Positions 1-10,600 of a stretch of 10,600 bases of DNA are shown piece by piece. Below the pieces are notes generated by a model. It saw only the letters and a program-made list of their open reading frames with translations. It was not told the origin of the DNA and made no database searches. Position 1 is the first letter of the stretch, and every line of letters starts with the position of its first letter. Origin of the DNA: Planctomycetota bacterium (lineage in GTDB: Bacteria; Planctomycetota; Phycisphaerae; Phycisphaerales; UBA1924). Made by a program: the position numbers and the translations under genes. The stretch covers positions 1 to 10,600 of the forward strand of contig JANRKN010000165.1 in the NCBI GenBank assembly GCA_033763435.1, given 5' to 3'.

Positions 1-165
1 GGGTGAGGCGAGGGTGAAACGGGTGGATCGCGCGTGGGGTGCCACCGGTCCGACGAGGCGCAGCCTCGGCGAGACTGGTGCCGAACTCGGCCCGCGTTCA
101 TCGGGCACCACTCTTCGCTTCGCTCCGAGTGGTGGCACCCAAGGCGGGGCCGCCACTGGCTCGGC

Positions 166-194
166 GGGTGGGGTGCGGGTGGGGTGGGGTGGGG
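166..194 (+). other. G-quadruplex-type motif, six consecutive GGG/GGGG runs separated by 1-3 nt (gggtggggtgcgggtggggtggggtgggg), about 70 nt upstream of the first CDS
   Basis: Direct reading of sequence. G-runs at 166-168, 170-173, 177-179, 181-184, 186-189, 191-194 on the + (coding-sense) strand. Followed at 203-218 by a 6-bp stem / GAAA tetraloop hairpin (ctgcggGAAAccgcag). Confidence 0.5.
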
Positions 195-266
195 CTTCTG
201 CTCTGCGGGAAACCGCAGGGCGGGAGATTGGGTTGCGGAGATCGGGAAAGAAACACAGGAGGTGGG

Positions 267-866
267 ATGATGTTTGCGACGGATCGGGACGTGCTGGCGC
301 TTTCGCCGCGGGTGTTCAATGAGTGCGCGTGGGCGGGTCAGCGGCGCGTGTCGGGCACGGGGACGATCACCGGCGCGGCGCTGACGATGACGGCGTCGGA
401 CGTGACGCTCGAAGCGGCGGGCGTGGACGCGGGGCACGTCGCGCTGATCGACGATGTGCCGCACGAACTGCTCGCGCGCACGGGGCCGAGCGCGATCGGC
501 ATCAGCCGCGTGCGTTCGAGGCCCGAGGACGCGCCGATCCCGCCCGCGCCGGGCACGGGGAGGCAGGTGCGCATCGTGACGTTCGCGCCGCAGCTCGCGG
601 CGGCGCACGCGCGGATCCTCACCGCGGCGGGGCTGGAATCCTCGGACGAATCGCGCATCGTCAACGGGAGCGAACTGGCGATGCTCGAGGCGGTGTGGGC
701 GTTGTCGGCGATCTGGGCCGGGGCGCGCGGCATCGGCGACACGAGCGCGACCGAACGCGCCGCGTGGTTCCATCGCGAGGTCGGCGTGCTGCGCTCGCGC
801 ATGCGCGTGAGGCTCGACACGGGCGAAGAGCGCACGCTCACGGGCCTGCGCCTGGTGCGGGAGTGA
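267..866 (+). CDS. hypothetical protein, 199 aa (the ORF-track 39..866 ORF trimmed to the ATG after the RBS)
   Basis: AGGAGG at 257-262 followed 4 nt later by ATGATG (267-272). The region upstream of 267 in this frame is G-rich leader (G4 motif, hairpins) with R/G/P-rich translation. Strong G/C third-position bias within 267-866. Stop TGA at 864-866. No recognisable domain. N-terminus MMFATDRDVLAL is loosely reminiscent of Mu gp36-like (DUF1320) phage proteins, but this is weak. Confidence 0.6.
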   Translation: MMFATDRDVLALSPRVFNECAWAGQRRVSGTGTITGAALTMTASDVTLEAAGVDAGHVALIDDVPHELLARTGPSAIGISRVRSRPEDAPIPPAPGTGRQVRIVTFAPQLAAAHARILTAAGLESSDESRIVNGSELAMLEAVWALSAIWAGARGIGDTSATERAAWFHREVGVLRSRMRVRLDTGEERTLTGLRLVRE

Positions 867-873
867 GAACTCG

Positions 874-966
874 GGTGGCACGGCTTGAGTGGGCTTGGGC
901 GCTCAAGCCGTGGAGGCGCACACAACGCACGGCTTGGCCCGAGCGCCAAGCCGTGGCACCCAAGAG
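874..966 (+). repeat. Two tandem REP-like palindromic hairpins (11-bp stems): B1 879-912 (cacggcttgag / 12-nt loop / ctcaagccgtg) and B2 928-955 (cacggcttggc / ccgagc / gccaagccgtg), followed by the motif GTGGCACCCAAG (953-964)
   Basis: Perfect 11-bp inverted repeats read directly from sequence. B2 is the exact reverse complement of the hairpin at 6134-6161. Sits in the 123-bp gap between two same-strand CDSs. Confidence 0.7.
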
Positions 967-989
967 ACAGCTTCATCGACGAGGGAACC

Positions 990-1379
990 ATGCTCATTCT
1001 CGATCCGTTGGATGTTTCATTCGGCGCGCGGTCGTGGCGCGATGTGCGGTCGCTGGCGGTGAGTGTCGAGGCCGCGCGCGTCGCGGAATCGTGGTCGGAC
1101 CTTGGGCCCTGGTGCGTGTTCGCCGACGTGCCCGAGCGGCGCGTGCGCGTGCAGATCGTGCGGAGTTTCGAGGGCTCTGAGCTGGCCGCGCCCGCCGTGG
1201 GCGATGAGGCGCTGCTGACGTTCACCGTCTCCGAGGGCGGGAGCGAGAGCGCGCGGCAGGTGGTCGCGCGGTGCGTCGTGACGGCCGTGCGCCACGAGAT
1301 CGCGCAGGGCAAGGCGGTGCAGCGGCTCGACCTGCTCGCGCTCTCCGAGACCGGCGGCGCGACGCCGATCGAGATGTAA
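990..1379 (+). CDS. hypothetical protein, 129 aa (ORF 885..1379 trimmed to the internal ATG)
   Basis: GAGGGA at 981-986, then ATG at 990. The region upstream of 990 in frame is occupied by the REP-like hairpins, so the longer ORF is implausible. High GC3. Stop TAA 1377-1379. No recognisable motif. Confidence 0.55.
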   Translation: MLILDPLDVSFGARSWRDVRSLAVSVEAARVAESWSDLGPWCVFADVPERRVRVQIVRSFEGSELAAPAVGDEALLTFTVSEGGSESARQVVARCVVTAVRHEIAQGKAVQRLDLLALSETGGATPIEM

Positions 1380-1409
1380 CCTCAGGCCCGCACACAGAAG
1401 GATCAACCC

Positions 1410-1790
1410 ATGAGCAGTTATAAGGGGCAGGACATCTTCGGCTCGGGCCCGCACCGGTTCAGCGCGTCGCCGCGGGGGCAGCTGCTGATCAGCGCGCTGA
1501 GCCAGAACCAGTTCGATCCGAGCAGCATCCCGCTGGGGCTGCTGGAAGAAGAGGTGCGCGTGCGCGGGCGGCTGGTGGGCACGAGCCAGGCGCAGCTCCG
1601 CCAGCGGATCGACGCGGTGAACGCGCTGCTGGAGAACCCGCCGACGCCGGGCACGCTGATCGACGAGCACGGCAAGCAGTACGCGGGCATGAGCTTCGTG
1701 CGCTTTGAAGAAGAGGACCGCACCGACCGCGGGCGCGTGTGCAGCGTGGCGTACGAGGCGGTGTTCCGGCGGTTGATCGTGATGCAGTAA
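1410..1790 (+). CDS. hypothetical protein, 126 aa
   Basis: GAAGGA at 1397-1402, 7 nt spacer, ATG 1410. High GC3. Stop TAA 1788-1790. Begins 30 nt after the previous CDS, so probably co-transcribed with it. No recognisable motif. Confidence 0.6.
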   Translation: MSSYKGQDIFGSGPHRFSASPRGQLLISALSQNQFDPSSIPLGLLEEEVRVRGRLVGTSQAQLRQRIDAVNALLENPPTPGTLIDEHGKQYAGMSFVRFEEEDRTDRGRVCSVAYEAVFRRLIVMQ

Positions 1791-1825
1791 AGCAGGCCAG
1801 TGGGCAGTGTGAACGGCCTCTCGTC

Positions 1826-1945
1826 GGGTGCCCCGAGTCGAGGGATCGAGCCCGTGGGCGAGATCCTGAGCCTCGGGCCGTTGGGCCCGACGCGCGCGAT
1901 GACGCTGCGCGCCATCACGCGGGTCGGGGCACCCTCACGCGCGCC
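1826..1945. repeat. Composite intergenic repeat element, copy 1: conserved core gggtgccccgagtcgagggatcgagcc...gcgagatcctgagcctcgggccg...cccgacgcgcg; a 20-bp imperfect inverted repeat (1886-1905 / 1909-1928, 17 of 20 pair); and a degenerate ggggcaccc unit (1926-1945)
   Basis: Nucleotide-level similarity to 6184-6312 seen by direct alignment. Reading frames differ between the two copies, so conservation is at DNA level, not protein level. Confidence 0.65.
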
Positions 1946-2005
1946 GATGCTTGACTGTTCTCCCCACGGGCTCTTCCCCACGAGCGTTCTTCTCAGGAGC
2001 TTCTC

Positions 2006-2302
2006 ATGGACCTGACTCTCGCGACGGAACTGGGCACGCAGATGGGCACGGCCGCGCTGCTCGGGTGGATGTGGATGAGCGAGCGGCGCGCCTCGGCCCG
2101 GCGTGAGCGGCTGCTCGAAGAGGCCCACGCGCGTGTGCTCGAGCAGTGCGCCAGCGCGCGCGAGGTCGCCCGCGCGCTCGATGCGACGGCGGTCGCGGTC
2201 GATCGCAACGCGCGCGCCGTCGATCGGCTGGACCGCGGCGTGGGTGCGCTGCTCGCGCGCATGCTCGGCGGACGCGACCAGCGCGCCGAGGCCGCGGATT
2301 GA
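2006..2302 (+). CDS. hypothetical small protein, 98 aa; short hydrophobic N-terminal segment (TAALLGWMWM) followed by an Arg/Ala/Glu-rich predicted helical, coiled-coil-like region
   Basis: AGGAG at 1995-1999, 6 nt spacer, ATG 2006. GC3 bias. Stop TGA 2300-2302 lies 19 nt before the next CDS, suggesting translational coupling. Possible -35-like TTGACT at 1951-1956. Confidence 0.5.
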   Translation: MDLTLATELGTQMGTAALLGWMWMSERRASARRERLLEEAHARVLEQCASAREVARALDATAVAVDRNARAVDRLDRGVGALLARMLGGRDQRAEAAD

Positions 2303-2321
2303 GCCCGTGTATGATCCACCG

Positions 2322-2990
2322 ATGCCCGCGCGATCGGCTCCCATCCTTGGTTTGGCCCCGGCGTCGGCCTCGTTGTTGGCCTCGGTGTTGGCTGCGGCGT
2401 TGGCGCTCTCGGGCTGCGGCTGGATGACCGGCTCGCGCCAGACGGCCGGTGAACGCTCGCCCGCGGCGGGCGAAACGCGCCTCACGCCCGGCCCCGCGCT
2501 CAACCCCTTCGCGCCCGCGTCGGTGCGGCTCTACCCGCTCACGCACGCGCAGCCGATGGGCCCCGGCGGGCGGCCCGTGCTCGTGGTGCACGTCGAGGTG
2601 AAGGACGCGTGGGGCGATTCGATCAAGTCCGCGGGCGAGATGGTCGTGCGCGTCGCGCCGCTCTCGGGCTGGAGCGGTCTGACGCGCGACGCCGCCGCCA
2701 AGGACGCGGGCAAGGACGCGGGCCGGGGCCCGGGAAGCGCGCGTGAAGAACCCTCGCGCTGGCGGATCGACATGACCGAGGCGGAGCTGAACAGCGCGTG
2801 GTTCGACCCCGCGACGCGCACGTATCAGGTGCGGCTGAGCAACCTGCCCGCGTGGATGGAAGAGGGCATCCGCCAGGGCGCGGGCAAGGACGGCAGCGAC
2901 CGCACGCTGCGCATCACCGCCGAGTTCACCGCGCTCAATGCCGAGGGACAGGTCAAGACGTTTTATGACGAGCTCGACCTGCGGCTGTGA
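2322..2990 (+). CDS. putative lipoprotein, 222 aa (ORF 2103..2990 trimmed to the in-frame ATG that begins a lipoprotein signal peptide)
   Basis: Translation from 2322 is MPARSAPILGLAPASASLLASVLAAALALSGC: a charged n-region, a long hydrophobic h-region and an L-S-G-C lipobox. The in-frame extension 2103-2321 translates to an R/S-rich non-protein-like sequence and overlaps the upstream CDS. The mature protein has no recognisable domain. Confidence 0.6.
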   Translation: MPARSAPILGLAPASASLLASVLAAALALSGCGWMTGSRQTAGERSPAAGETRLTPGPALNPFAPASVRLYPLTHAQPMGPGGRPVLVVHVEVKDAWGDSIKSAGEMVVRVAPLSGWSGLTRDAAAKDAGKDAGRGPGSAREEPSRWRIDMTEAELNSAWFDPATRTYQVRLSNLPAWMEEGIRQGAGKDGSDRTLRITAEFTALNAEGQVKTFYDELDLRL

Positions 2991-3004
2991 GCGGCTGAGG
3001 TTTT

Positions 3005-3034
3005 CGTGATGGGGCTGTACGTGATGGGCCTGTG
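3005..3034 (+). promoter_or_regulatory. 15-bp tandem direct repeat (cgtgatggggctgta / cgtgatgggcctgtg), 80-110 bp upstream of the 3116 CDS; candidate regulator-binding site
   Basis: Direct reading of the sequence; 13 of 15 positions identical between the two units. A regulatory role is inference only. Confidence 0.25.
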
Positions 3035-3115
3035 TGACCCCCTACGGCAGCCGAACGAAACCGCTCTTCCGCATCAGGCTGGATTCCACCCCGTCCCTCG
3101 GCGACAATCACCGCG

Positions 3116-4576
3116 ATGCCCACGCGCGACCAACGTTGTCTGACTGTGCCGACACGCGCGAAGGCGCGCGCCGCGGGGCTGGGCGTCAGCGCGCTCGTGC
3201 TGGCCGCGGGGCTCGCGCTCGCGCAGCCCGATTCCTCCCCATCCCCGACCCCACCCCCGACTCCCACTCCGACGCCAACGCCCGAGCCAACGCCCGAGCC
3301 GACACGGGAACCAGAATCTGCGCCCGAGGCGGAGGACGCGATCGAGGACATCGAAGAGACGATCGTGACGTTCCTCGACGGGCGCAAGGTGACGGGCGTG
3401 CTGATGATGATCGAGCGCGAGGCGCTGACGCTGCGGATCGGTCCGATCGAGCAGCGGTTTGCGACGCGTGAGATCGACCGGTGGGAGACGTTGCCGCCGA
3501 TCAGCGTGCGCTATCGCGAGATGCGCGCGTCGATCCCCGACCGGGACACCGACGCGCGGCTGGTGCTCGCGCAGTGGCTGGCCGACAAGAAGCGGTACGA
3601 CCTGGCGCTGAAGGAAGTGGAATCGATCCTCGTCTCCGAGCCCGGCCATCCGCAGGCCGAGCAGATGAAGCTGCAGTACGAGAAGCTCCAGGAGCTGGCG
3701 CGCAAGGGCACGTCGCGGACGGTGCCGGGCGAGCCCGTGCGCAAGCGCGCGCCCGAGGCGCCCGCGCGGAGTTTCCCGGTGCTGAGCGAGGAGCAGATCA
3801 ATCTGATCAAGGTGTACGAGGTGGACCTGCGCGACCCGCCGCGGATGATCATCCCGCGCGAGCTGATCGACGAGCTGATCGCGCGCTTCAAGGACCACCC
3901 CGCGATGCCGCGGACGCAGGAGGGGCGCGACGATCTGTACCGTCAGCGGCCCGATCAGATCGTGGACCTGCTCTTCCGCGTGCGTGCGCGCGAGCTGTAC
4001 GGGAAGGTCAAGGTCCAGGACCATCCGCCCGCGTTCAAGCTCTTCCGCGACCTGGTGCACTCCTCGTGGCTGATGAACTCGTGCGCGACCACGCGCTGCC
4101 ACGGCGGAGAGCAGGCCGGGCGACTCATGCTCACCGCGCGCAGGCCCAACTCCGACTTTGCGGTCTACACGAACTTCCTGATCCTCGACCGCTTCCGGAT
4201 GCGCGACGGCACGCCGCTGCTGAACTGGGATTCGCCCGCGCAGTCCGCGCTGCTGCAGCTGGGCCTGCCTCGCAACATCTCGCGCGTGCCGCACCCGGAC
4301 GTCACCGGCCCGCGGGGCCAGCGCGGGTGGGAGCCGGTCTTCGCGACCGAGCAGGACCAGCGCTTCCAGGACGCGCTGCGCTGGATGAACGCGATGTACC
4401 GCCCCCGCCCCGAGTACCCGATCGACTACGCGCTGCCGACGCCCGGCACGGCCTCAGGTGCCGCCGCGCCCTCGAGCCCTGCACCTTCGAGCCCTGCACC
4501 CTCGGCGCCGAGCACGGGCAACGCGGGCAGCCCCGCGCCCGCGGGGGGCAATCAGCCGGGCAACCCGCCGCGGTGA
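3116..4576 (+). CDS. secreted protein, 486 aa: signal peptide, acidic Pro/Thr-rich linker (PTPTPTPTPEPTPEPT), central domain, a planctomycete-cytochrome-like segment with the non-canonical motif C-x4-C-H (CATTRCH), and a Pro/Ser/Ala-rich C-terminal tail
   Basis: Signal peptide RAKARAAGLGVSALVLAAGLALAQP. The segment FKLFRDLVHSSWLMNSCATTRCHGGEQAGRLMLTA resembles the C..CHG...LRLD region of planctomycete cytochrome-c-like domains (PSCyt-type) from memory, but carries CX4CH instead of CXXCH (coding nt 4082-4102). The start could alternatively be the in-frame GTG at 3146 (MPTR / VPTR). There is no clear SD. Confidence 0.7.
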   Translation: MPTRDQRCLTVPTRAKARAAGLGVSALVLAAGLALAQPDSSPSPTPPPTPTPTPTPEPTPEPTREPESAPEAEDAIEDIEETIVTFLDGRKVTGVLMMIEREALTLRIGPIEQRFATREIDRWETLPPISVRYREMRASIPDRDTDARLVLAQWLADKKRYDLALKEVESILVSEPGHPQAEQMKLQYEKLQELARKGTSRTVPGEPVRKRAPEAPARSFPVLSEEQINLIKVYEVDLRDPPRMIIPRELIDELIARFKDHPAMPRTQEGRDDLYRQRPDQIVDLLFRVRARELYGKVKVQDHPPAFKLFRDLVHSSWLMNSCATTRCHGGEQAGRLMLTARRPNSDFAVYTNFLILDRFRMRDGTPLLNWDSPAQSALLQLGLPRNISRVPHPDVTGPRGQRGWEPVFATEQDQRFQDALRWMNAMYRPRPEYPIDYALPTPGTASGAAAPSSPAPSSPAPSAPSTGNAGSPAPAGGNQPGNPPR

Positions 4577-4710
4577 TGAACGCGCGCCAGTACGCGTGGG
4601 CGCCCGATTCTCGGACTCGCGCGCCGCGGGTGGACCGCCTCGGGCGTTCCGTGTTGCTCGCGGGCCGCGCCAACCCGGCAAAGCCCCTCCAATCCGTTGA
4701 TTGTGCTGGG

Positions 4711-4738
4711 TTTCAGGGCCGCCGTAGACCGTTATGAT
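4711..4738 (+). promoter_or_regulatory. candidate sigma70-like promoter for the 4803 CDS (-10 TATGAT at 4733-4738; weak -35, either GTTTCA or TTCAGG, at 4710-4716)
   Basis: Good -10 hexamer about 65 nt upstream of the start, but the -35 is poor. A better TTGATT hexamer (4697-4702) is 30 nt away, which is the wrong spacing. Speculative. Confidence 0.2.
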
Positions 4739-4802
4739 GGGCTCTTCCACCGTGCGGTTGCGACGCGAGCGATCTGGCGCTGGATCGGAGAAGGAGCCCG
4801 CG

Positions 4803-5951
4803 ATGACGTTCACGTCCCTGATTCGCCTGATCGCGATCGCCTCGATCGCGGGCATCGGCGCGAGCGCCTCGGCGCAGATCACGATCCCCACCGTGCCCGT
4901 CGGCGACCCCGGCAACAACTGGGATTCGAACAACGGCCGCGGCTCGGTCTGGTACACGTACAACATCGGCACGTTCGAGGTGACCGCGGGTCAGTACGCC
5001 GCGTTCCTCAACGCCGTCGCACGCTCGGACCCCAACAACCTCTACACCCCCGATCAGGCCCGAACCGACTACGGCAGCGGCATCGCGCGCACCGGCACCC
5101 CCGGCAGCTACACGTACACCGTCGCCCCCGCGTTCGTGAACCGGCCCGTGAACTACGTCTCGTTCTGGGATGCGTGCCGCTTTGTCAACTGGCTGCACAA
5201 CGGCCAGCCGACCGGCGCGCAGAACGCCAGCACCACCGAGGACGGCGCGTACACGCTGACCGCCGCGGGCATCAGCGCCAACACCATCACCCGCAACGAG
5301 GGCTGGCGGTGGGCCGTGACCAGCGACGACGAGTGGTACAAGGCCGCGTTCTACAAGGGCGGGGGCACCAGCGCGGGCTATTGGTTCTTCCCCACCCGCA
5401 GCAACACGCCCCCGACCAACGACCTGAACGATCTCTCGGGCAACAGCGCCAACTACCGATGGGGCCCGGGCGCGTTTCCGATCCAGAGCCCGTACTTCAC
5501 GACGGTCGTGGGCCAGTTCGCCAACTCGCCCAGCCCGCACGGCACGTTCGACATGGCCGGGAACGTGTGGGAGTGGACCGAGCGCATCACCAGCCGAGAC
5601 CGCGTCCTCCGGGGCGGGTCGTTCATGAGCGAACTCCTGGCCGTACCCAACTACCCCGTCGCGTCCTACGGCGCACTCTTCCACTACGCCCCGCAGGCCG
5701 AGTACTTCGCCTGGGGCTTTCGTGTCGTTCAGAAGCCGCCCTGCGCCGCCGACTTCGACGGCTCGGCCTTCGTCGACGCCGACGACTTCGTCTTCTTCCT
5801 CGAACAGTTCACGCTCGGGTGCACAGGCCCCGGCCAGGACGTGTTCGGGCCCAATCCCAGCTGCGTGAAGAACGCCGACTTCGACGGCACCAGCTTCATC
5901 GATGCCGACGACTTCGTCGCGTTCCTCGCGGCGTTCCAGGCGGGTTGCTGA
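4803..5951 (+). CDS. formylglycine-generating-enzyme (FGE/SUMF1) family domain protein, 382 aa, with an N-terminal signal peptide and two C-terminal Cys-flanked dockerin-like / EF-hand-like Ca-binding repeats (ORF 4734..5951 trimmed)
   Basis: GGAGAAGGAG at 4787-4796, then ATG 4803 giving MTFTSLIRLIAIASIAGIGASASAQ (signal peptide). FGE-sulfatase hallmarks are present: PVNYVSFWDACRFVNW, DEWYKAAF, GNVWEWTERI and RVLRGGSF. The C-terminal repeats are CAADFDGSAFVDADDFVFFLEQF...GC and CVKNADFDGTSFIDADDFVAFLAAF..GC (DNA direct repeat 5748-5810 / 5874-5936). Confidence 0.85.
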   Translation: MTFTSLIRLIAIASIAGIGASASAQITIPTVPVGDPGNNWDSNNGRGSVWYTYNIGTFEVTAGQYAAFLNAVARSDPNNLYTPDQARTDYGSGIARTGTPGSYTYTVAPAFVNRPVNYVSFWDACRFVNWLHNGQPTGAQNASTTEDGAYTLTAAGISANTITRNEGWRWAVTSDDEWYKAAFYKGGGTSAGYWFFPTRSNTPPTNDLNDLSGNSANYRWGPGAFPIQSPYFTTVVGQFANSPSPHGTFDMAGNVWEWTERITSRDRVLRGGSFMSELLAVPNYPVASYGALFHYAPQAEYFAWGFRVVQKPPCAADFDGSAFVDADDFVFFLEQFTLGCTGPGQDVFGPNPSCVKNADFDGTSFIDADDFVAFLAAFQAGC

Positions 5952-6133
5952 GCGGGAAGGCCGGGTGGGCTGGGTGGCATCCAAGGCCGGGGCACCCGAT
6001 CACCTTCTCCGCCTTTCGAGCCCCGAAGGGGCGCACGGGCTGTAGCCACGGGTGAAGTGAGCGAGTCTTCGAGCGAGCGCAACCCGTGGAAGGTCGCGCC
6101 CTCTCGCTCTCGAAGTCGTCCTTAGCTGGGTGG

Positions 6134-6161
6134 CACGGCTTGGCGCTCGGGCCAAGCCGTG
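6134..6161. repeat. REP-like hairpin B3 (cacggcttggc / gctcgg / gccaagccgtg), the inverted-orientation copy of the 928-955 hairpin; shares the flank gggtggcacggcttg with the 874-890 copy
   Basis: Exact reverse-complement identity with 928-955, read directly from sequence. Confidence 0.7.
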
Positions 6162-6183
6162 GTGAAGCGTCCGCGCGCGCGGG

Positions 6184-6312
6184 GGGTGCCCCGAGTCGAG
6201 GGATCGAAGCCGCCCCGTTGGGTGGGGGGCGGCGAGATCCTGAGCCTCGGGCCGAAGGACGCCTCACGCCCGACGCGCGTCGCCCATCAGAGCCTGGGCT
6301 CCGCGAGTCGGG
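6184..6312. repeat. Composite intergenic repeat element, copy 2: the same conserved core as 1826-1928, with a roughly 20-nt insertion (gccgccccgttgggtggggggcggc, itself hairpin-forming), ending in a cccgacgcgcg...ccgcgagtcggg hairpin
   Basis: Direct alignment with copy 1. Identical blocks are ggtgccccgagtcgagggatcga, gcgagatcctgagcctcgggccg and cccgacgcgcg. Translated frames of the two copies differ, so it is not a conserved peptide. Confidence 0.65.
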
Positions 6313-6420
6313 GCACCCGATGCAGCATCACGCCGGGGCACCCGATGCAGCGTCAAGCCGTGGCACCCGATGCAGCGTCAGGCCGGGGCACCCGATGCAG
6401 CGTCACGCCGGGGCACCCGC
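6310..6420. repeat. Tandem array of 4.4 copies of a 25-bp unit (ggggcacccgatgcagcgtcacgcc; units at 6310, 6335, 6360, 6385, partial 6410-6420), contiguous with composite element copy 2
   Basis: Units read directly; 1-3 substitutions per unit. No intervening unique spacers, so not CRISPR. Truncated versions of the unit occur at 1926-1945 and 5987-6013. Confidence 0.75.
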
Positions 6421-6436
6421 TTCAGTTCGCGCGGCC

Positions 6437-6682
6437 TCAGTTCACGCTGGAGGGCACCGCGCGCCTGTTCAGTTCTTCGAGTTCCTTCTTTTCCTGCTCA
6501 GAGATCTGGCTCGCCGCGGCCTTCTGATCAGGCGGGATCGGGTCCTTGATCGGCGCGGGCCCGAGGTTGATCACCCCCGTCCCGTACAGGATGCCGACGG
6601 TGCCCAGCCCGAGCATCACCACCGCCAGCGTGATCTTCAAGCCCTTGCCGCCGCCCGAAGGTTCTTCAGTTTTCATCGCCAT
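6437..6682 (-). CDS. small membrane protein, 81 aa: one TM helix (ITLAVVMLGLGTVGILYGTGVI) and a C-terminal Lys/Glu-rich amphipathic tail; 38 nt downstream of the permease, likely co-transcribed
   Basis: Minus-strand ORF with ATG at 6680-6682 and stop at 6437-6439. GC3 bias except in the K/E-rich tail. No convincing RBS. Protein-like hydrophobic segment. The overlapping + ORFs (6086..6793, 6159..6527, 6546..6803) look non-coding. Confidence 0.45.
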   Translation of the reverse strand: MAMKTEEPSGGGKGLKITLAVVMLGLGTVGILYGTGVINLGPAPIKDPIPPDQKAAASQISEQEKKELEELNRRAVPSSVN

Positions 6683-6720
6683 GCCCGGATTCTACGGCAT
6701 GTGCCAAGGCTCGGGGCCGC

Positions 6721-8127
6721 TCAACCCACGTCGCGCTTCTGGAACAGCATCACCGCCAGCGACAGGCACGCGCCGATCTGCAGCAGCGAGTAGAGCGCGA
6801 TGAGCCCGACGTGCGAGACGGGGATCGCGACGTTCTGGCTGACGGCGTCGAGGAGCCAGAAGTAGTGCAGGTTGGGCACGACCGCCCACGCCGCGAGATA
6901 CACGGGCCGCACGACCGTGGGCGTCGCGAAGACATAATCGCCCGGCTCCGGCGGCCTGCGGACCGCGCCGCCCTCGCGGTTGTCCTCGGGCCCGATGTGA
7001 CGCAGCGTCAGCACGGGCCGCCCGCCCGCCGAACCCTCCGCGCCCTTGCTGAAGCTCAGGTTCGTGAGCACGATCGCCCGCGGCGCGTTCGCGCCCAGCG
7101 TCTGCTGCGGATCGCTCAGGCTGCCCTCAAACCGCAGCGCCTCGGGCGAGGCGGTCTGAAGATCAAACCCGTTGGGGTTGGGCCCATAGCGCAGGAAATC
7201 GCCCGCGGCGAGCGGCCTGGTCGCGGGCAGTTCGAGCGTGACCTCGTAGAAATCGCCGGGCGTCGCGAAGCTCGGGTCGCGCGGGTTGGCCGCGACGACC
7301 GCCGCGACGCGCCCGATCGGGTCGTTGGAGTAGGCCAGACGCCCGAGGAAGTAGTTCGTCAGCAGCGAGGCGAGGAAGACGCCCGCGCAGACGGTGATGG
7401 TCATGACCTGCGAGAGGCGCGTGGAGGCCGCGGTCGCGATCGCCGTGAGCACCAGCACCGCCAGCAGCAGCACGGCGCAGGCGAGGGTGATCTGGGGCTT
7501 GAAGTCGACCAGCGGGGGCTGGATCCGCCATTCCTTGCCGATGAACATCACCGCGACGAACGCCGCGATCGTCAGCGGCGCGAGCAGCAGCGTGACCATC
7601 TGCGGGAACGACCAGCCGTAGAAGTAGTTGGCCCAGCCCGCAAAGCCCAGCGCCCCGCCGACCGCCAGCAGCGAGAAGACGACCACGGGCATATCGATCT
7701 CGTCGGCGGCGGTAGACATCACGCCGTGGCGGATGCACAGCAGCAGGAAGACGAGCATGGTGATGACGGCGATCGAGATCGCGCCCGCGACGCCCAGAAA
7801 CTTGCCGAGGACGACGGTGGGGCGCGCGATGGGCTTGGAGACCACGGTGAGAACGGTCTTGTTCTCGATCTCGCGGCTCATGACCGCGGTCGCGAGGAAA
7901 CCGGCGAGCAGCATGCCCATGACGAAGACGGAGGAGAGCCCGATGTCGAGCAGGAGCTTGTTGTCGCCCGAGACCTCGGAGGCATCGGTGTAGCCCATCG
8001 AGTAGCCGGTGGACCAGGTGGTGAAGATCTGGATCACGCCGCAGAGCAGCGTGAGGATGAAGAGCACGGGCTGACGCGTGCTCTCGACGAACGTGTTCTT
8101 CGCGATGGTGAGCGACTGGATGACCAT
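6721..8127 (-). CDS. ABC-2 family transporter permease, 469 aa (ORF 6721..8739 trimmed to internal Met 205): five TM helices, an extracytoplasmic insertion of about 150 aa, and a C-terminal TM helix
   Basis: The N-terminus MVIQSLTIAKNTFVESTRQPVLFILTLL matches the characteristic start of ABC-2 / NosY / GldF-type permeases (M..IL.IAKKEF...LRS). Multiple hydrophobic helices. The 204-aa extension upstream of this Met is P/R-rich and non-protein-like, and it would overlap the divergent 8678 gene. ATG is the complement of cat at 8125-8127; stop is the complement of tca at 6721-6723. Confidence 0.75.
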   Translation of the reverse strand: MVIQSLTIAKNTFVESTRQPVLFILTLLCGVIQIFTTWSTGYSMGYTDASEVSGDNKLLLDIGLSSVFVMGMLLAGFLATAVMSREIENKTVLTVVSKPIARPTVVLGKFLGVAGAISIAVITMLVFLLLCIRHGVMSTAADEIDMPVVVFSLLAVGGALGFAGWANYFYGWSFPQMVTLLLAPLTIAAFVAVMFIGKEWRIQPPLVDFKPQITLACAVLLLAVLVLTAIATAASTRLSQVMTITVCAGVFLASLLTNYFLGRLAYSNDPIGRVAAVVAANPRDPSFATPGDFYEVTLELPATRPLAAGDFLRYGPNPNGFDLQTASPEALRFEGSLSDPQQTLGANAPRAIVLTNLSFSKGAEGSAGGRPVLTLRHIGPEDNREGGAVRRPPEPGDYVFATPTVVRPVYLAAWAVVPNLHYFWLLDAVSQNVAIPVSHVGLIALYSLLQIGACLSLAVMLFQKRDVG

Positions 8128-8200
8128 AAATGCGTGCGCGAGGCGGGCGCGGCACGGGAGAACCCCGCCAGCGCCGGGAAGAATGTGGACCCCGAAGGTA

Positions 8201-8223
8201 CGAACATAGCCGGGCTGTGTTCG
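8201..8223. promoter_or_regulatory. 23-bp near-perfect palindrome CGAACATAGCCGGGCTGTGTTCG (one mismatch), 75-95 bp upstream of the permease start in the divergent intergenic region; candidate dimeric-regulator operator
   Basis: Dyad symmetry read directly: 11 of 12 half-site positions pair. The function is inference. Confidence 0.3.
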
Positions 8224-8277
8224 CCGGTCACGGCCCGCGGGCCTTCCGCGTGCGCAAGGGTTGCGGGGCTGGGCTTG

Positions 8278-8329
8278 CTGGTTGGGCCTGCTGGTTGGGC
8301 CTGCAGGTTGGGTTGGCAGGTTGGGCTTC
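8278..8329. repeat. Four tandem 13-bp G-rich units (ctggttgggcctg x2, caggttgggttgg, caggttgggcttc), flanked by further GGG runs from 8265 to 8333 (G4-capable on the + strand)
   Basis: Direct reading of the sequence. Lies between divergent genes: about 150-200 bp upstream of the permease start and about 350 bp upstream of the SPFH gene start. Confidence 0.6.
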
Positions 8330-8677
8330 GGGACGATGAAGTCCCCAAAGGCGGGCCGAACCCAGGGCCCCGCGCGGCTGTATAGAGGATGCCGATCGAC
8401 AGGGAATCGGCGAATGGCTGGAAAGCGACCCCCGGGCGGCTCACAATACCGCCCCGGTCCCTCGACCGGCCTCGGGCCCGCCTTCGGGCCCGGCGCTACC
8501 TCTTCTCTGTGGGCCTTCGGTGTTGGGGCATTGGGACGTCGGGCGAGTTCTTCGTCCGGCGGAGTGCGCGGGTTGGAAGCAACGGAGTGCGCCGCCGGGC
8601 CTTGGGTCCCGGCTCGCTGTGCGTCCGAGACTGTGCGTGGGGGGCTGTGTGTGTGACTGAGGTCGGCTGGAGCGTCC

Positions 8678-10570
8678 ATGCGGATTGACCAACTGACGTA
8701 CAAGCGTGCGACCGGCGTGAGTGTCCGCGGCCTGATCATCCAGGTCGTCTTTGCCGTCGCCTTCGTGATCTACGGCTTCCGCGCGGGCGATGCCTCCGCG
8801 CTCAACGCCGCGATCTATCTCGGCGCGGGCATCCTCGCCTGGCTCGCCCTGGCGATCGTCTTCGATCAGCACCGCCGCGAGCGCCTGGAAGCCTTCGAAC
8901 AGCAGGCCCTGGCCGAGAGCGGCGCCGCGGACACCTCCGTCTTCGGCTCGGGCGACGATGAGTTCCGCCCCGCGCAGCGCCGGCTCAACACGCTCTACCG
9001 CTGGTTCGTCCCCATCGTCGCGCTGCTGATGGCGGGCACGCTCATCGGGCTGGGCGTCGTGCGCTTCCTGCAGGCGCGCGAGGACCTGCCGCTCCCCGGC
9101 ACGAGCGCGACGCGCCTGCCCAACGAGGCGCTCCGCGGCTGGGCGCTGGCGATCGCGACGACGGTGGCCTTCGCGGGCTTTGTCTTCGCGCGCTACGCCT
9201 CGGGCATGGGCAAGCAGAAGGTGTGGGCGAGCCTGAAGGCGGGCGCCGCGGTGAGCGCGGGCTCGTCGCTCCTGGGCCTGCTGCTCGCGATCGCGCACTT
9301 CATCAAGTACATCGGGCCCGACGTGGGCCTGGTCTATCTGCCCATCATCACCGCCTCGCTGCTCGTGCTGCTGGGCGCGGAGATCGTGGTGCGCTTCCTG
9401 CTGGAGCTCTACCGCCCGCGCAAGGCGGGCGAGTTCCCCGCGCCCGCGTTCGAGTCCAAGCTGCTGGGCCTGTTCGCCGCGCCCGACCGGATCGCCGAGT
9501 CGATCTCGGGCGCGATCAACTATCAGTTCGGCTCGAATGTTTCGGACACGTGGTTCTACCGCCTCGTGCTCCGCAGCAAGGAACTGCTGCTGCTGGTCGC
9601 GATCCTGCTGTTCTGGGGCATGACGAGCATCGTGGTGGTCGAGCCTCACCAGCGCGGGCTGATCCTCCGCGGCGGCGCCGTCGCGCGCGAGGCCGAGCCG
9701 GGCCTGCACTTCAAGTATCCCTGGCCCTTCGAGCGCCTGGAAGTGCCCGTCTACGGGCGCGTCAACGACCGCGGGCGCTTTGAGGAAAAGACGCGGACGG
9801 TGACGGGCCTGCGGGTCATCAACCTCGCGACGGCCTCGCCCTCGGGCGACAAGCCGATCCTCTGGACGAACGAGCACGCGCGCGACGAGGTCTTCCAGCT
9901 CGTGCAGCCCGCGCGCGCGACGCTGAGCGAGTCGTTCGCCGCGCCGGGCGCCGAGGAACCCGCGATGACCGCCGCGGGCAGCCCCGCCGCGGGCGCGCGG
10001 GACCTGGCGATGATCTCGCTGGAAGTGCCCGTGCACTACGTCGTGCGCGACGTGAAGGCGTTCGAATCGCTCGGCCCGCCCGCGATGCGCGACCCGATCC
10101 TCCGCGGCGCGGGGCAGCGCGAACTCATCCAGTTCCTGGGCACCTACTCGATCGACCAGATCCTCGGCAAGGAGCGCGCGGGCCTGGCCGAGAAGCTCCG
10201 CGCCCGCGTGCAGGCCGCGTACGACCGGCTGAACGTGGGAGGCGAAGGCCGGGGCGCGGGCGTCGAGGTCGTCTTCGTCGGGCTCAACGGCGCGCACCCG
10301 CCGCGCGAGACCGCCGCGAGCTTCGAGCGCGTCGTGCAGGCCGAGCAGAACCGCCAGAGCAAGGTCGAGACGGCCCGCGCCGAGGCAATCGAACGGCTCA
10401 CGCGCAGCGTCGGCTCGGTCGACCGCGCGCGCACCATCGCGTCGGAACTGATGGAGCTGGAGAAGCTCCGCGAGACGGGCGCGAAGGCTGAACTCATCGC
10501 CGAGAAGGAATTCGCGATCCAGCGCCTGCTCGAACAGGCGGGGGGCGAGGCGGCGGCGATCCTCGCCTAG
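8678..10570 (+). CDS. SPFH/band-7 family protein (HflK/HflC-like), 630 aa, with an unusual N-terminal polytopic membrane extension of about 300 aa (six predicted TM helices) preceding the canonical anchor TM, SPFH domain and coiled-coil tail
   Basis: GGAG at 8669-8672, 5 nt spacer, ATG 8678. Strong GC3 bias from the first codon, so the N-terminal extension is coding. The SPFH region aligns by eye with E. coli HflK: LLLLVAILLFWGMTSIVVVEPHQRGLILRGG...EPGLHFKYPWPFERLEVPV, ISLEVPVHYVV, GVEVVFVGLNGAHPPRETAASFERVVQAEQNRQ (compare ARPPEEVKAAFDDAIAARENEQ), followed by a coiled-coil C-terminus. Stop TAG at 10568-10570. Confidence 0.85.
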   Translation: MRIDQLTYKRATGVSVRGLIIQVVFAVAFVIYGFRAGDASALNAAIYLGAGILAWLALAIVFDQHRRERLEAFEQQALAESGAADTSVFGSGDDEFRPAQRRLNTLYRWFVPIVALLMAGTLIGLGVVRFLQAREDLPLPGTSATRLPNEALRGWALAIATTVAFAGFVFARYASGMGKQKVWASLKAGAAVSAGSSLLGLLLAIAHFIKYIGPDVGLVYLPIITASLLVLLGAEIVVRFLLELYRPRKAGEFPAPAFESKLLGLFAAPDRIAESISGAINYQFGSNVSDTWFYRLVLRSKELLLLVAILLFWGMTSIVVVEPHQRGLILRGGAVAREAEPGLHFKYPWPFERLEVPVYGRVNDRGRFEEKTRTVTGLRVINLATASPSGDKPILWTNEHARDEVFQLVQPARATLSESFAAPGAEEPAMTAAGSPAAGARDLAMISLEVPVHYVVRDVKAFESLGPPAMRDPILRGAGQRELIQFLGTYSIDQILGKERAGLAEKLRARVQAAYDRLNVGGEGRGAGVEVVFVGLNGAHPPRETAASFERVVQAEQNRQSKVETARAEAIERLTRSVGSVDRARTIASELMELEKLRETGAKAELIAEKEFAIQRLLEQAGGEAAAILA

Positions 10571-10600
10571 GCCTCGGCAGAACGCTGGACGCGGCACATG

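Follow-up and report, generated by a model that had tools for sequence, protein, structure and literature searches.

A predicted SPFH assembly of the Phycisphaerae whose largest, HflK-type subunit carries a fused six-helix membrane domain and is encoded beside an ABC-2 transporter

The window analyzed here is a 10,600-nucleotide (nt) stretch of DNA from a Planctomycetota bacterium (GenBank assembly GCA_033763435.1, contig JANRKN010000165.1, positions 1 to 10,600 of the forward strand, with position 1 as its first letter), and the gene under study, designated S1 (8678-10570), encodes an SPFH protein in which six additional transmembrane (TM) helices precede the membrane anchor (the 6TM-SPFH architecture). 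S1 combines an HflK-type SPFH protein with a domain that is new as a fusion partner, and its invariant genomic partnership, with genes for an ATP-binding cassette (ABC) transporter of the ABC-2 type, is new as well. S1 is proposed to be the largest subunit of a three-paralogue assembly of the HflK/HflC type, and the predicted assembly is, as judged from sequence, characteristic of the Phycisphaerae (phylum Planctomycetota). Members of the family are labeled 'HflK', 'HflC', 'SPFH domain-containing' or 'hypothetical' in databases, and from these current labels neither the additional domain nor the linkage to the transporter can be seen. In keeping with the original prediction, made from the letters of the window, that the fusion had not been characterized, a full-text literature search found no paper on the 6TM-SPFH architecture or on an SPFH/ABC-2 cluster.

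From about residue 300 to its end, S1 is, by profile and model comparison, homologous to Escherichia coli HflK, with anchor, SPFH domain, coiled-coil helices, and tail in the same succession. The identification as an HflK/HflC-like SPFH protein, proposed at the outset, is borne out by the Pfam Band_7 family (PF01145), which matches S1 with 62.1 bits against a gathering score of 23.6 and with profile positions 2-176 covered in full, and by an hhalign comparison of the S1 family with E. coli HflK (probability 99.1%, E=6.9e-19) spanning HflK residues 81-352, in which the seventh TM helix of S1 (TM7) is aligned to residues 81-100, the HflK anchor. As in HflK, the anchor (residues 302-321) stands directly before the SPFH domain and the coiled-coil helices (residues 543-620) after it. 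The nearest solved sequence is that of E. coli HflK, and the AlphaFold2 (AF2) model of full-length S1 (predicted local distance difference test score, pLDDT, 82), which, besides the anchor and an SPFH domain of the alpha/beta type, contains long helices, retrieved HflK as the best Foldseek match (E=2.4e-9), followed by stomatin, HflC, erlin, prohibitin, and QmcA. Relative to HflK the S1 family has two inserts, one inside the SPFH domain and one adding a helical segment to the coiled-coil part, and the hflK equivalog model TIGR01933 gives 65.3 bits for S1, not reaching its cut-off of 159.4.

The N-terminal third of the protein has no counterpart in HflK. Six hydrophobic segments, at residues 13-35, 43-62, 108-130, 153-172, 188-209, and 217-244, are evident from Kyte-Doolittle hydropathy, in agreement with the six helices originally predicted ahead of the anchor. 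The AF2 model of residues 1-300 (hereafter the N-domain), built from a 32-sequence alignment, is all-helical with six long helices (pLDDT 89.8; predicted template-modeling score 0.86) and includes an amphipathic helix pair at residues 261-284. Across 50 sequences, lysine plus arginine is enriched at the N-terminus and in loops 2-3, 4-5, and 6-7, and the short loops 1-2 and 5-6 are acidic. By the positive-inside rule, S1 is therefore predicted to be a seven-TM protein with a cytoplasmic N-terminus, and since an N-in topology is combined with seven helices, the SPFH domain is placed in the periplasm, which it would face as in HflK. The predicted topology of the homologous part is thus the same in the two proteins; however, HflK is a single-pass type II protein with a short cytoplasmic N-terminus, whereas S1 has seven hydrophobic helices, with six extra TM helices and about 100 conserved cytoplasmic residues before the anchor. 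The latter lie in two conserved cytoplasmic segments, residues 63-107 (FDQHRRERxEAxE...) and residues 245-300 (YRPRKAGE...AAPDRIAxSIxEAINYQFG), the second of which, the linker to the anchor, is among the best-conserved portions of S1. Conservation is marked in D63-Q-H-R-R-E-R69 at the cytoplasmic end of TM2 and in Y245-R-P-R248 after TM6. Polar residues conserved in the family are Q22 (TM1), R172, and E235 and N239 (TM6), of which E235 is an invariant Glu embedded in the membrane; the conserved helices on the cytoplasmic side are charged.

The whole window has a guanine-plus-cytosine (GC) content of about 70%, so that long spurious open reading frames (ORFs) are common there. Nevertheless, the third-position GC content (GC3) rises from about 0.7 upstream to 0.86-0.98 exactly from 8678 and is held to the end of the ORF, and residues 1-300 of S1 are therefore taken to be translated, as had been argued earlier from codon bias. 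The ATG at 8678 is aligned with Met1 in nearly all relatives, an annotated N-terminal extension being present in one relative. An internal start near the anchor helix, named at the outset as the finding that would speak against a fusion, is ruled out by the conserved Met1, the GC3 profile, and the conserved linker, and so is a separate gene for the N-terminal part.

The other end of the gene required more correction. A database protein of 630 aa, annotated as 'SPFH domain-containing protein' in a Planctomycetota metagenome-assembled genome (MAG), has 100% identity to the S1 product, and 630 aa had been taken as the natural length. By comparison with its relatives, this product is instead a cut-down version of a protein of about 700 aa: homologues are 690-730 aa long and are aligned over the whole query before running on for 70-90 further residues, and the codon at the position of the TAG that ends the ORF is a sense codon in 63 of the 63 relatives checked, mostly GAG, AGG, CAG, or AAG. 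Beyond the TAG the frame continues with ASAERWTRHM, matching the family consensus xAxAxRWxRHMxERGRAARY. The ATG at 10598-10600, which had been considered as the start of a downstream gene, possibly HflC-like, was rejected as such, being in frame with S1 and encoding the Met of the conserved RHM motif; the sequence there belongs to the S1 frame and to its HflK-type C-terminal segment. The tail missing from the 630-aa product corresponds in profile comparison to E. coli HflK residues 288-352.

The 6TM-SPFH architecture is widespread and, in the sequences at hand, uniform. A search with full-length S1 returned 471 homologues; nearly all of the 120 listed have 98-100% query coverage (two have 92%) at 42-52% identity, and the sources named among these 120 are Phycisphaerales, Phycisphaerae, or Planctomycetota. 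When a profile of the N-domain was run against 1.84 billion cluster representatives, 984 proteins (50% identity clusters) were matched at E<=1e-3 and 467 at E<=1e-30, and almost all of the best 150 of the 984 are 670-750 aa long and carry the domain in roughly their first 300 residues. At least 563 genomes encode an S1 relative in a scan of one genome per GTDB species. The best 80 of these are assigned to Phycisphaerales, Phycisphaeraceae, Phycisphaerae, Tepidisphaera, Phycisphaera, or Planctomycetota, with two exceptions, one 'Cyanobacteria' and one 'Planctomycetaceae'. A contig labeled 'Cyanobacteria bacterium CYA' (locus L054, RHKP01000002.1) carries a complete cluster of the Phycisphaerae type with 49% identity and is probably a mis-binned or mislabeled MAG contig.

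The original prediction had suggested looking for the N-domain as a separate gene in other genomes. None was found among the matches inspected, all of them outside the 147 weakest of the 984. The N-domain matches of 300-440 aa that were checked proved to be labeled partial, to cluster with a full-length protein, to be cut by a contig end (locus L091), or to stem from a duplication (locus L090). At L090 (6001-8990), a 330-aa N-domain protein is followed by a 666-aa SPFH protein, the 'split' having arisen through an exact duplication, about 700 nt in length, inside a metagenome scaffold; in all likelihood the scaffold was mis-assembled here and the N-domain does not occur naturally as a protein of its own. 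Judged across these sequences, the fusion of N-domain and SPFH protein is genuine and conserved, and obligatory among the matches inspected.

As regards the fold of the N-domain, the top 15 and nearly all of the top 31 Foldseek matches are cation diffusion facilitator (CDF) transporters (YiiP, ZnT1/3/4/7/8, and SLC30A10), the first with E=3.8e-3, TM-scores of 0.53/0.56, and probability 1.00. At the sequence level, Pfam Cation_efflux (PF01545) is the commonest weak match, found in 13 of 32 N-domains (best E 9.3e-5), with scores in the detailed tables of 8.8-18.1 bits, all under the gathering score of 26.6. Where the register is listed, family positions of about 105-238 (TM3-TM6) fall on profile positions of about 63-185 of 198. 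The modeled N-domain appears to have a CDF-like fold and is possibly a remote, degenerate CDF homologue. The CDF family (YiiP/FieF, ZnT/SLC30; PF01545), whose members have a six-TM bundle with both ends cytoplasmic like the one predicted for S1, provides the best fold matches for residues 1-300, and the weak sequence similarity is co-linear over TM3-TM6. However, S1 differs from CDF proteins in having neither the metal residues on TM2 and TM5 nor the metallochaperone-like C-terminal domain.

The genomic partnership was delineated in 87 related loci from two collections (L001-L085, L087, and L088, the last two more divergent), with synteny assessed by phmmer comparison of eight L001 proteins with the six-frame ORFs of L001-L085. 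In the annotated loci of three relatives, the order is a small TM protein and the permease P1 on one strand and, divergently, S1, S2, S3, A, P2, and T on the other. The order P1(-)/S1 S2 S3 A P2 T is complete and exact in 52 of L001-L085, a few more depart from it by an additional or split ORF or in that the small gene was picked up as well, and in the rest it is cut by the contig or locus end; it is contradicted in no locus and recurs in the divergent L087 and L088. S2 (340 aa) is a Band_7 protein with one N-terminal TM helix that matches TIGR01932 (hflC) with E=8e-34 and 116.9 bits versus a cut-off of 134.4. S3 (about 480 aa) is a further Band_7 protein with one TM helix, at residues 51-69, matching TIGR01933 (hflK) with E=7e-23 and 81 versus 159 bits. 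S1 and S3 share about 26% identity, locally, and S1 and S2 are more distant, so that the three are taken to be old paralogues. A is an ABC ATPase (PF00005, E=5e-32) whose nearest models are DrrA and GldA, P2 is a second ABC-2 permease of 620-660 aa, and T, of about 650 aa, has N-terminal TM helices and a weak TPR match. In the three annotated loci, the members of the pairs S2/S3 and A/P2 share 4 nt, and the remaining genes of the string are 5-104 nt apart. In L001, no intergenic terminator-like hairpin was found on the + strand from S1 to T, and on the opposite strand the small gene is followed by a strong one.

In the window itself, P1 and the small gene are present (Table 1), and the genes past S1 lie beyond the contig end. 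The start of P1 is fixed by alignment with the syntenic gene of L001, L003, and L005 (52-56% identity), and the position of the small protein is occupied in these three loci by a 74-88-aa gene with 26-28% identity and the same layout. Of the earlier description of P1 as a divergent, orphan permease, the divergent arrangement (6721-8127, - strand) stands, and the orphan status does not, A and P2 following the SPFH genes in relatives. Likewise, the statement that no partner SPFH gene precedes the end of the window holds for the window and not for the cluster, in which S2 and S3 directly follow S1.

It is proposed that S1, S2, and S3 would together form an HflK/C-like ring or cage facing the periplasm, and that this structure would have the co-encoded ABC-2 transporter as its client or partner, instead of FtsH or besides it. 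The transporter would consist of one ATPase (A) and two unlike permeases (P1 and P2), together with T and the small protein. The bundles of six helices contributed by S1 would make the part of the ring wall that lies in the membrane thicker, or would serve as a dock for the transporter, without transporting ions themselves. This composite, with an SPFH cage of S1-S3, an ABC-2 client, and the S1 bundles as wall or docking elements, is considered to stand about an even chance of being correct. A bolder formulation, according to which the cluster encodes an undescribed machine in which a cage wall reinforced by degenerate CDF domains has a dedicated client in an ABC-2 exporter and not in a protease, is possible but put forward tentatively.

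Several points weigh against this proposal. The assembly and the ABC link are drawn from strict synteny, which is suggestive only, and S2 and S3 resemble an ordinary HflC/HflK pair that could simply serve FtsH. The TAG may be real, in which case S1 of this organism lacks the tail corresponding to HflK 288-352. Furthermore, CDF homology of the N-domain is not established, with every Pfam match sub-threshold: the S1 protein of the window gives nothing against PF01545 at E<=1, a search of PDB sequences with the N-domain profile found no CDF protein, an hhalign comparison of the N-domain alignment with E. coli FieF was not significant (E=0.26), and the Foldseek E-values are 4e-3 or worse with large root-mean-square deviations.

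The likeliest alternative holds that S1-S3 are simply the HflK/HflC proteins of the Phycisphaerae, modulating FtsH, with the six-TM part as a lineage-specific extension (for example, a wider membrane fence or a docking site for FtsH substrates) and the ABC-2 genes separate in function. It is considered rather unlikely. In its favor, the nearest characterized relatives, whether judged by sequence, profile, or fold, are HflK and HflC of E. coli, the score of S2 (116.9 bits) is not far short of the hflC equivalog cut-off (134.4), and JGI annotation names the family members HflK or HflC. However, all three proteins fall under the HflK/HflC equivalog cut-offs (65 versus 159, 117 versus 134, and 81 versus 159 bits), the loci with called genes listed all lack an ftsH gene within 10 kb, and the ABC genes belong to the same tight string at every locus examined, which is unusually strict for unrelated neighbors.

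Comparison with known systems bears on the same question. With E. coli HflK/HflC, the FtsH-modulating SPFH cage (PDB 7vhp, 7wi3, and 9cz2), S1 shares the homologous region from anchor to tail and, wherever the contigs of relatives reach, the proximity of an HflC-like and a further HflK-like gene. In contrast, the S1 cluster has three paralogues where HflK/HflC has two, and it is located inside an ABC-2 transporter gene string, whereas E. coli hflKC follows hflX. The SPFH fold is also common to S1 and the stomatin-type or SPFH-NfeD systems (QmcA-YbbJ, PDB 8z5g), among which association of an SPFH oligomer with a transport protein has a parallel in PDB 9zd2, titled aquaporin 1 bound to stomatin; however, the transporter-like module is covalently fused in S1, and no NfeD gene occurs in the cluster. 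As for the DrrA/GldA-GldF transporters, P1 matches ABC2_membrane_2 above threshold, its L001 orthologue is weakly similar to GldF, and A is nearest DrrA/GldA, but the cluster scores under the equivalog cut-offs and contains no recognized GldG-type protein. We know of no Gld or Drr system coupled to SPFH genes. In the survey of Hinderhofer et al. 2009 (PMC2636767), 12 prokaryotic SPFH subfamilies are distinguished, with NfeD proteins as conserved operon partners; for none of them is an ABC transporter described, a term search of the text finding 'ABC' nowhere.

Orthogonal to these functional readings is the question of whether the TAG at the end of the S1 ORF is real, making the gene a pseudogene or a truncated allele without the segment aligned to HflK 288-352. 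In favor of a real stop, the TAG is part of the contig as deposited, the database gives the protein a length of 630 aa, and none of the 63 relatives has a stop at its position. On the other hand, it lies 30 nt from the contig end, in the zone where assembly errors concentrate, and is one base off the commonest codons there (GAG, CAG, and AAG). Moreover, the reading frame is kept through the 10 codons past it, which agree with the conserved motif, and the remainder of the ORF shows no decay (GC3 0.88-0.98). The simplest explanation is that sequencing or assembly went wrong at this point, 30 nt short of the contig end, and a genuine truncation is considered fairly improbable.

Less probable again is the possibility that the N-domain is an active, very divergent transporter or channel of the CDF type, gated or clustered by the fused SPFH domain in the manner of stomatins with channels. 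It draws on CDF transporters being the top structural matches for the N-domain in two independent methods, on Cation_efflux being the commonest weak Pfam match in a consistent register, on the invariant or near-invariant in-membrane polar residues E235, N239, and Q22, and on a P1B heavy-metal ATPase that adjoins the cluster in two divergent relatives. In CDF transporters, metal site A is tetrahedral and formed by Asp/His pairs on TM2 and TM5 (YiiP). By contrast, TM2 and TM5 of the N-domain carry none of these Asp/His residues, and the only residues conserved there are G51, W55, G189, G195, and G200, none of which is polar, so that the CDF site is absent. S1 also has no CDF cytoplasmic C-terminal domain, TM6 leading through a linker of 57 residues to TM7 and the SPFH domain, and the sequence support for CDF never reaches a curated threshold. 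The P1B ATPase neighbor is limited to 2 of 88 loci. Overall, it is unlikely that the N-domain works as a CDF transporter; the earlier suggestion of a channel module gains some support from the resemblance of the bundle to the CDF membrane domain, although the metal-site residues are missing from the bundle. That the fusion is itself an artifact, two genes joined by a sequencing error or by a wrong start codon, has nothing in its favor and virtually no chance of being right, given a continuous architecture of about 700 aa in hundreds of independent assemblies, a linker (residues 245-300) among the best-conserved parts of S1, and the fact that the split gene looked at closely (L090) is an exact duplication inside its scaffold.

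The features of the cluster within the window are collected in Table 1.

Table 1. Coordinates of S1, its parts, and the adjoining features in the window
Feature	Position	Strand	Basis or remark
Small single-TM protein, 81 aa, directly downstream of P1	6437..6682	-	Layout shared with relatives
ABC-2 permease P1, 468 aa, its last TM helix preceded by a large extracytoplasmic insert	6721..8127	-	PF12679, 41.8 bits versus 27.2
Divergent spacer P1-S1, 550 nt	8128..8677		About five tandem 13-nt units, several imperfect inverted repeats
Promoter-like element for P1: GTGACC (8231-8226), 17-nt spacer, TATGTT (8208-8203)	8203..8231	-	75 nt upstream of P1 start
S1 ORF as read, first gene of the conserved SPFH/ABC-2 cluster	8678..10570	+	630 codons plus TAG; GC3 about 0.95
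N-terminal membrane module, six TM helices	8678..9577 (aa 1-300)	+	Hydropathy, AlphaFold2; apparently CDF-transporter-like fold
Seventh TM helix, counterpart of the single HflK membrane anchor	9581..9640 (aa 302-321)	+	Hydropathy peak 2.75, strongest of the seven
SPFH/Band 7 domain	9635..10387 (aa 320-570)	+	PF01145, E=9e-17
Low-complexity Ala/Pro-rich insert in the SPFH domain	9914..10000 (aa 413-441)	+	pLDDT below 50
Long helices corresponding to the HflK coiled-coil wall region, plus family-specific extra helical segment	10304..10537 (aa 543-620)	+	AF2, hhalign
In-frame premature TAG	10568..10570	+	Sense codon there in relatives; alignment runs on beyond
In-frame continuation ASAERWTRHM, start of conserved HflK-type C-terminal segment	10571..10600	+	Translation; cut by window end

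The spacer between P1 and S1 is, as originally described, rich in repeats and, with several imperfect inverted repeats, contains palindromes. The tandem 13-nt units, GGTTGGGCCTGCT-like and in about five copies, are located at 8267-8331. In relatives the spacer has a median length of 455 nt (range 268-1036 nt, n=80) and measures about 470-580 nt in the three annotated loci. A structured RNA was considered for this long spacer and rejected, a search of the whole window against Rfam having returned no match at E<=1. The motif AACATA-N13-15-GTAnnTCAA was found on the + strand in 34 of 77 related spacers, with 0 expected from shuffles; read on the permease strand, it is TTGAnnTAC-N-TATGTT, with a sigma-70-like geometry, 30-230 nt upstream of P1. 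In the window the -35 half of this element is degenerate, and a consensus promoter and terminator scan of 8100-8700 called nothing, the promoter-like element included.

Several further observations concern the cluster and its surroundings. Orthologues of A are 395-427 aa long, and in the L001 protein (14690-15973) ABC_tran extends to residue 183 and the DrrA/GldA-type matches reach to about residue 295, so that no family matches the last 130 residues or so. In both P1 and P2, large inserts (about 170-215 aa) lie between TM helices. A role as a defense system was considered and rejected, PADLOC defense models giving no match for S1, S2, S3, P1, P2, or T and generic ABC/AAA matches for A. A jackhmmer search with FieF against all ORFs of the related loci found no CDF genes. 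In L087 (6484-8562) and L088 (6890-8905), a P1B heavy-metal ATPase (TIGR01525, about 564 bits) is encoded beside the divergent permease; as this neighbor is absent from the other 86 loci, a link to metal homeostasis was rejected as a family property, and it may be a lineage-specific hint of metal or a coincidence. Upstream of the cluster, the window contains a gene with an FGE-sulfatase (formylglycine-generating-enzyme-like) domain (4728-5951, + strand, E=3.6e-18) and, also on the + strand, high-GC3 ORFs at 18-866, 867-1379, 1380-1790, 2079-2990, and 3038-4576 with no Pfam match. The upstream neighbors differ between loci, with relatives carrying glycogen synthase, mfd, or chemotaxis genes.

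SPFH proteins (stomatin, prohibitin, and flotillin as well as HflK/C) are universal, and the client of most bacterial ones is the main open question of the field. The S1 family offers a natural experiment in this respect, with its architecture in at least 563 species, its transporter-like fusion, and its ABC-2 linkage. The linkage leads to a concrete and testable hypothesis about the client, and some members of the class are in culture. The N-domain may exemplify how a CDF-like membrane domain came to be used for a structural purpose. If the bolder formulation is true, this would be the first bacterial SPFH assembly with a client revealed by invariant gene linkage, and S1 would be the first SPFH subunit to have captured a transporter fold.

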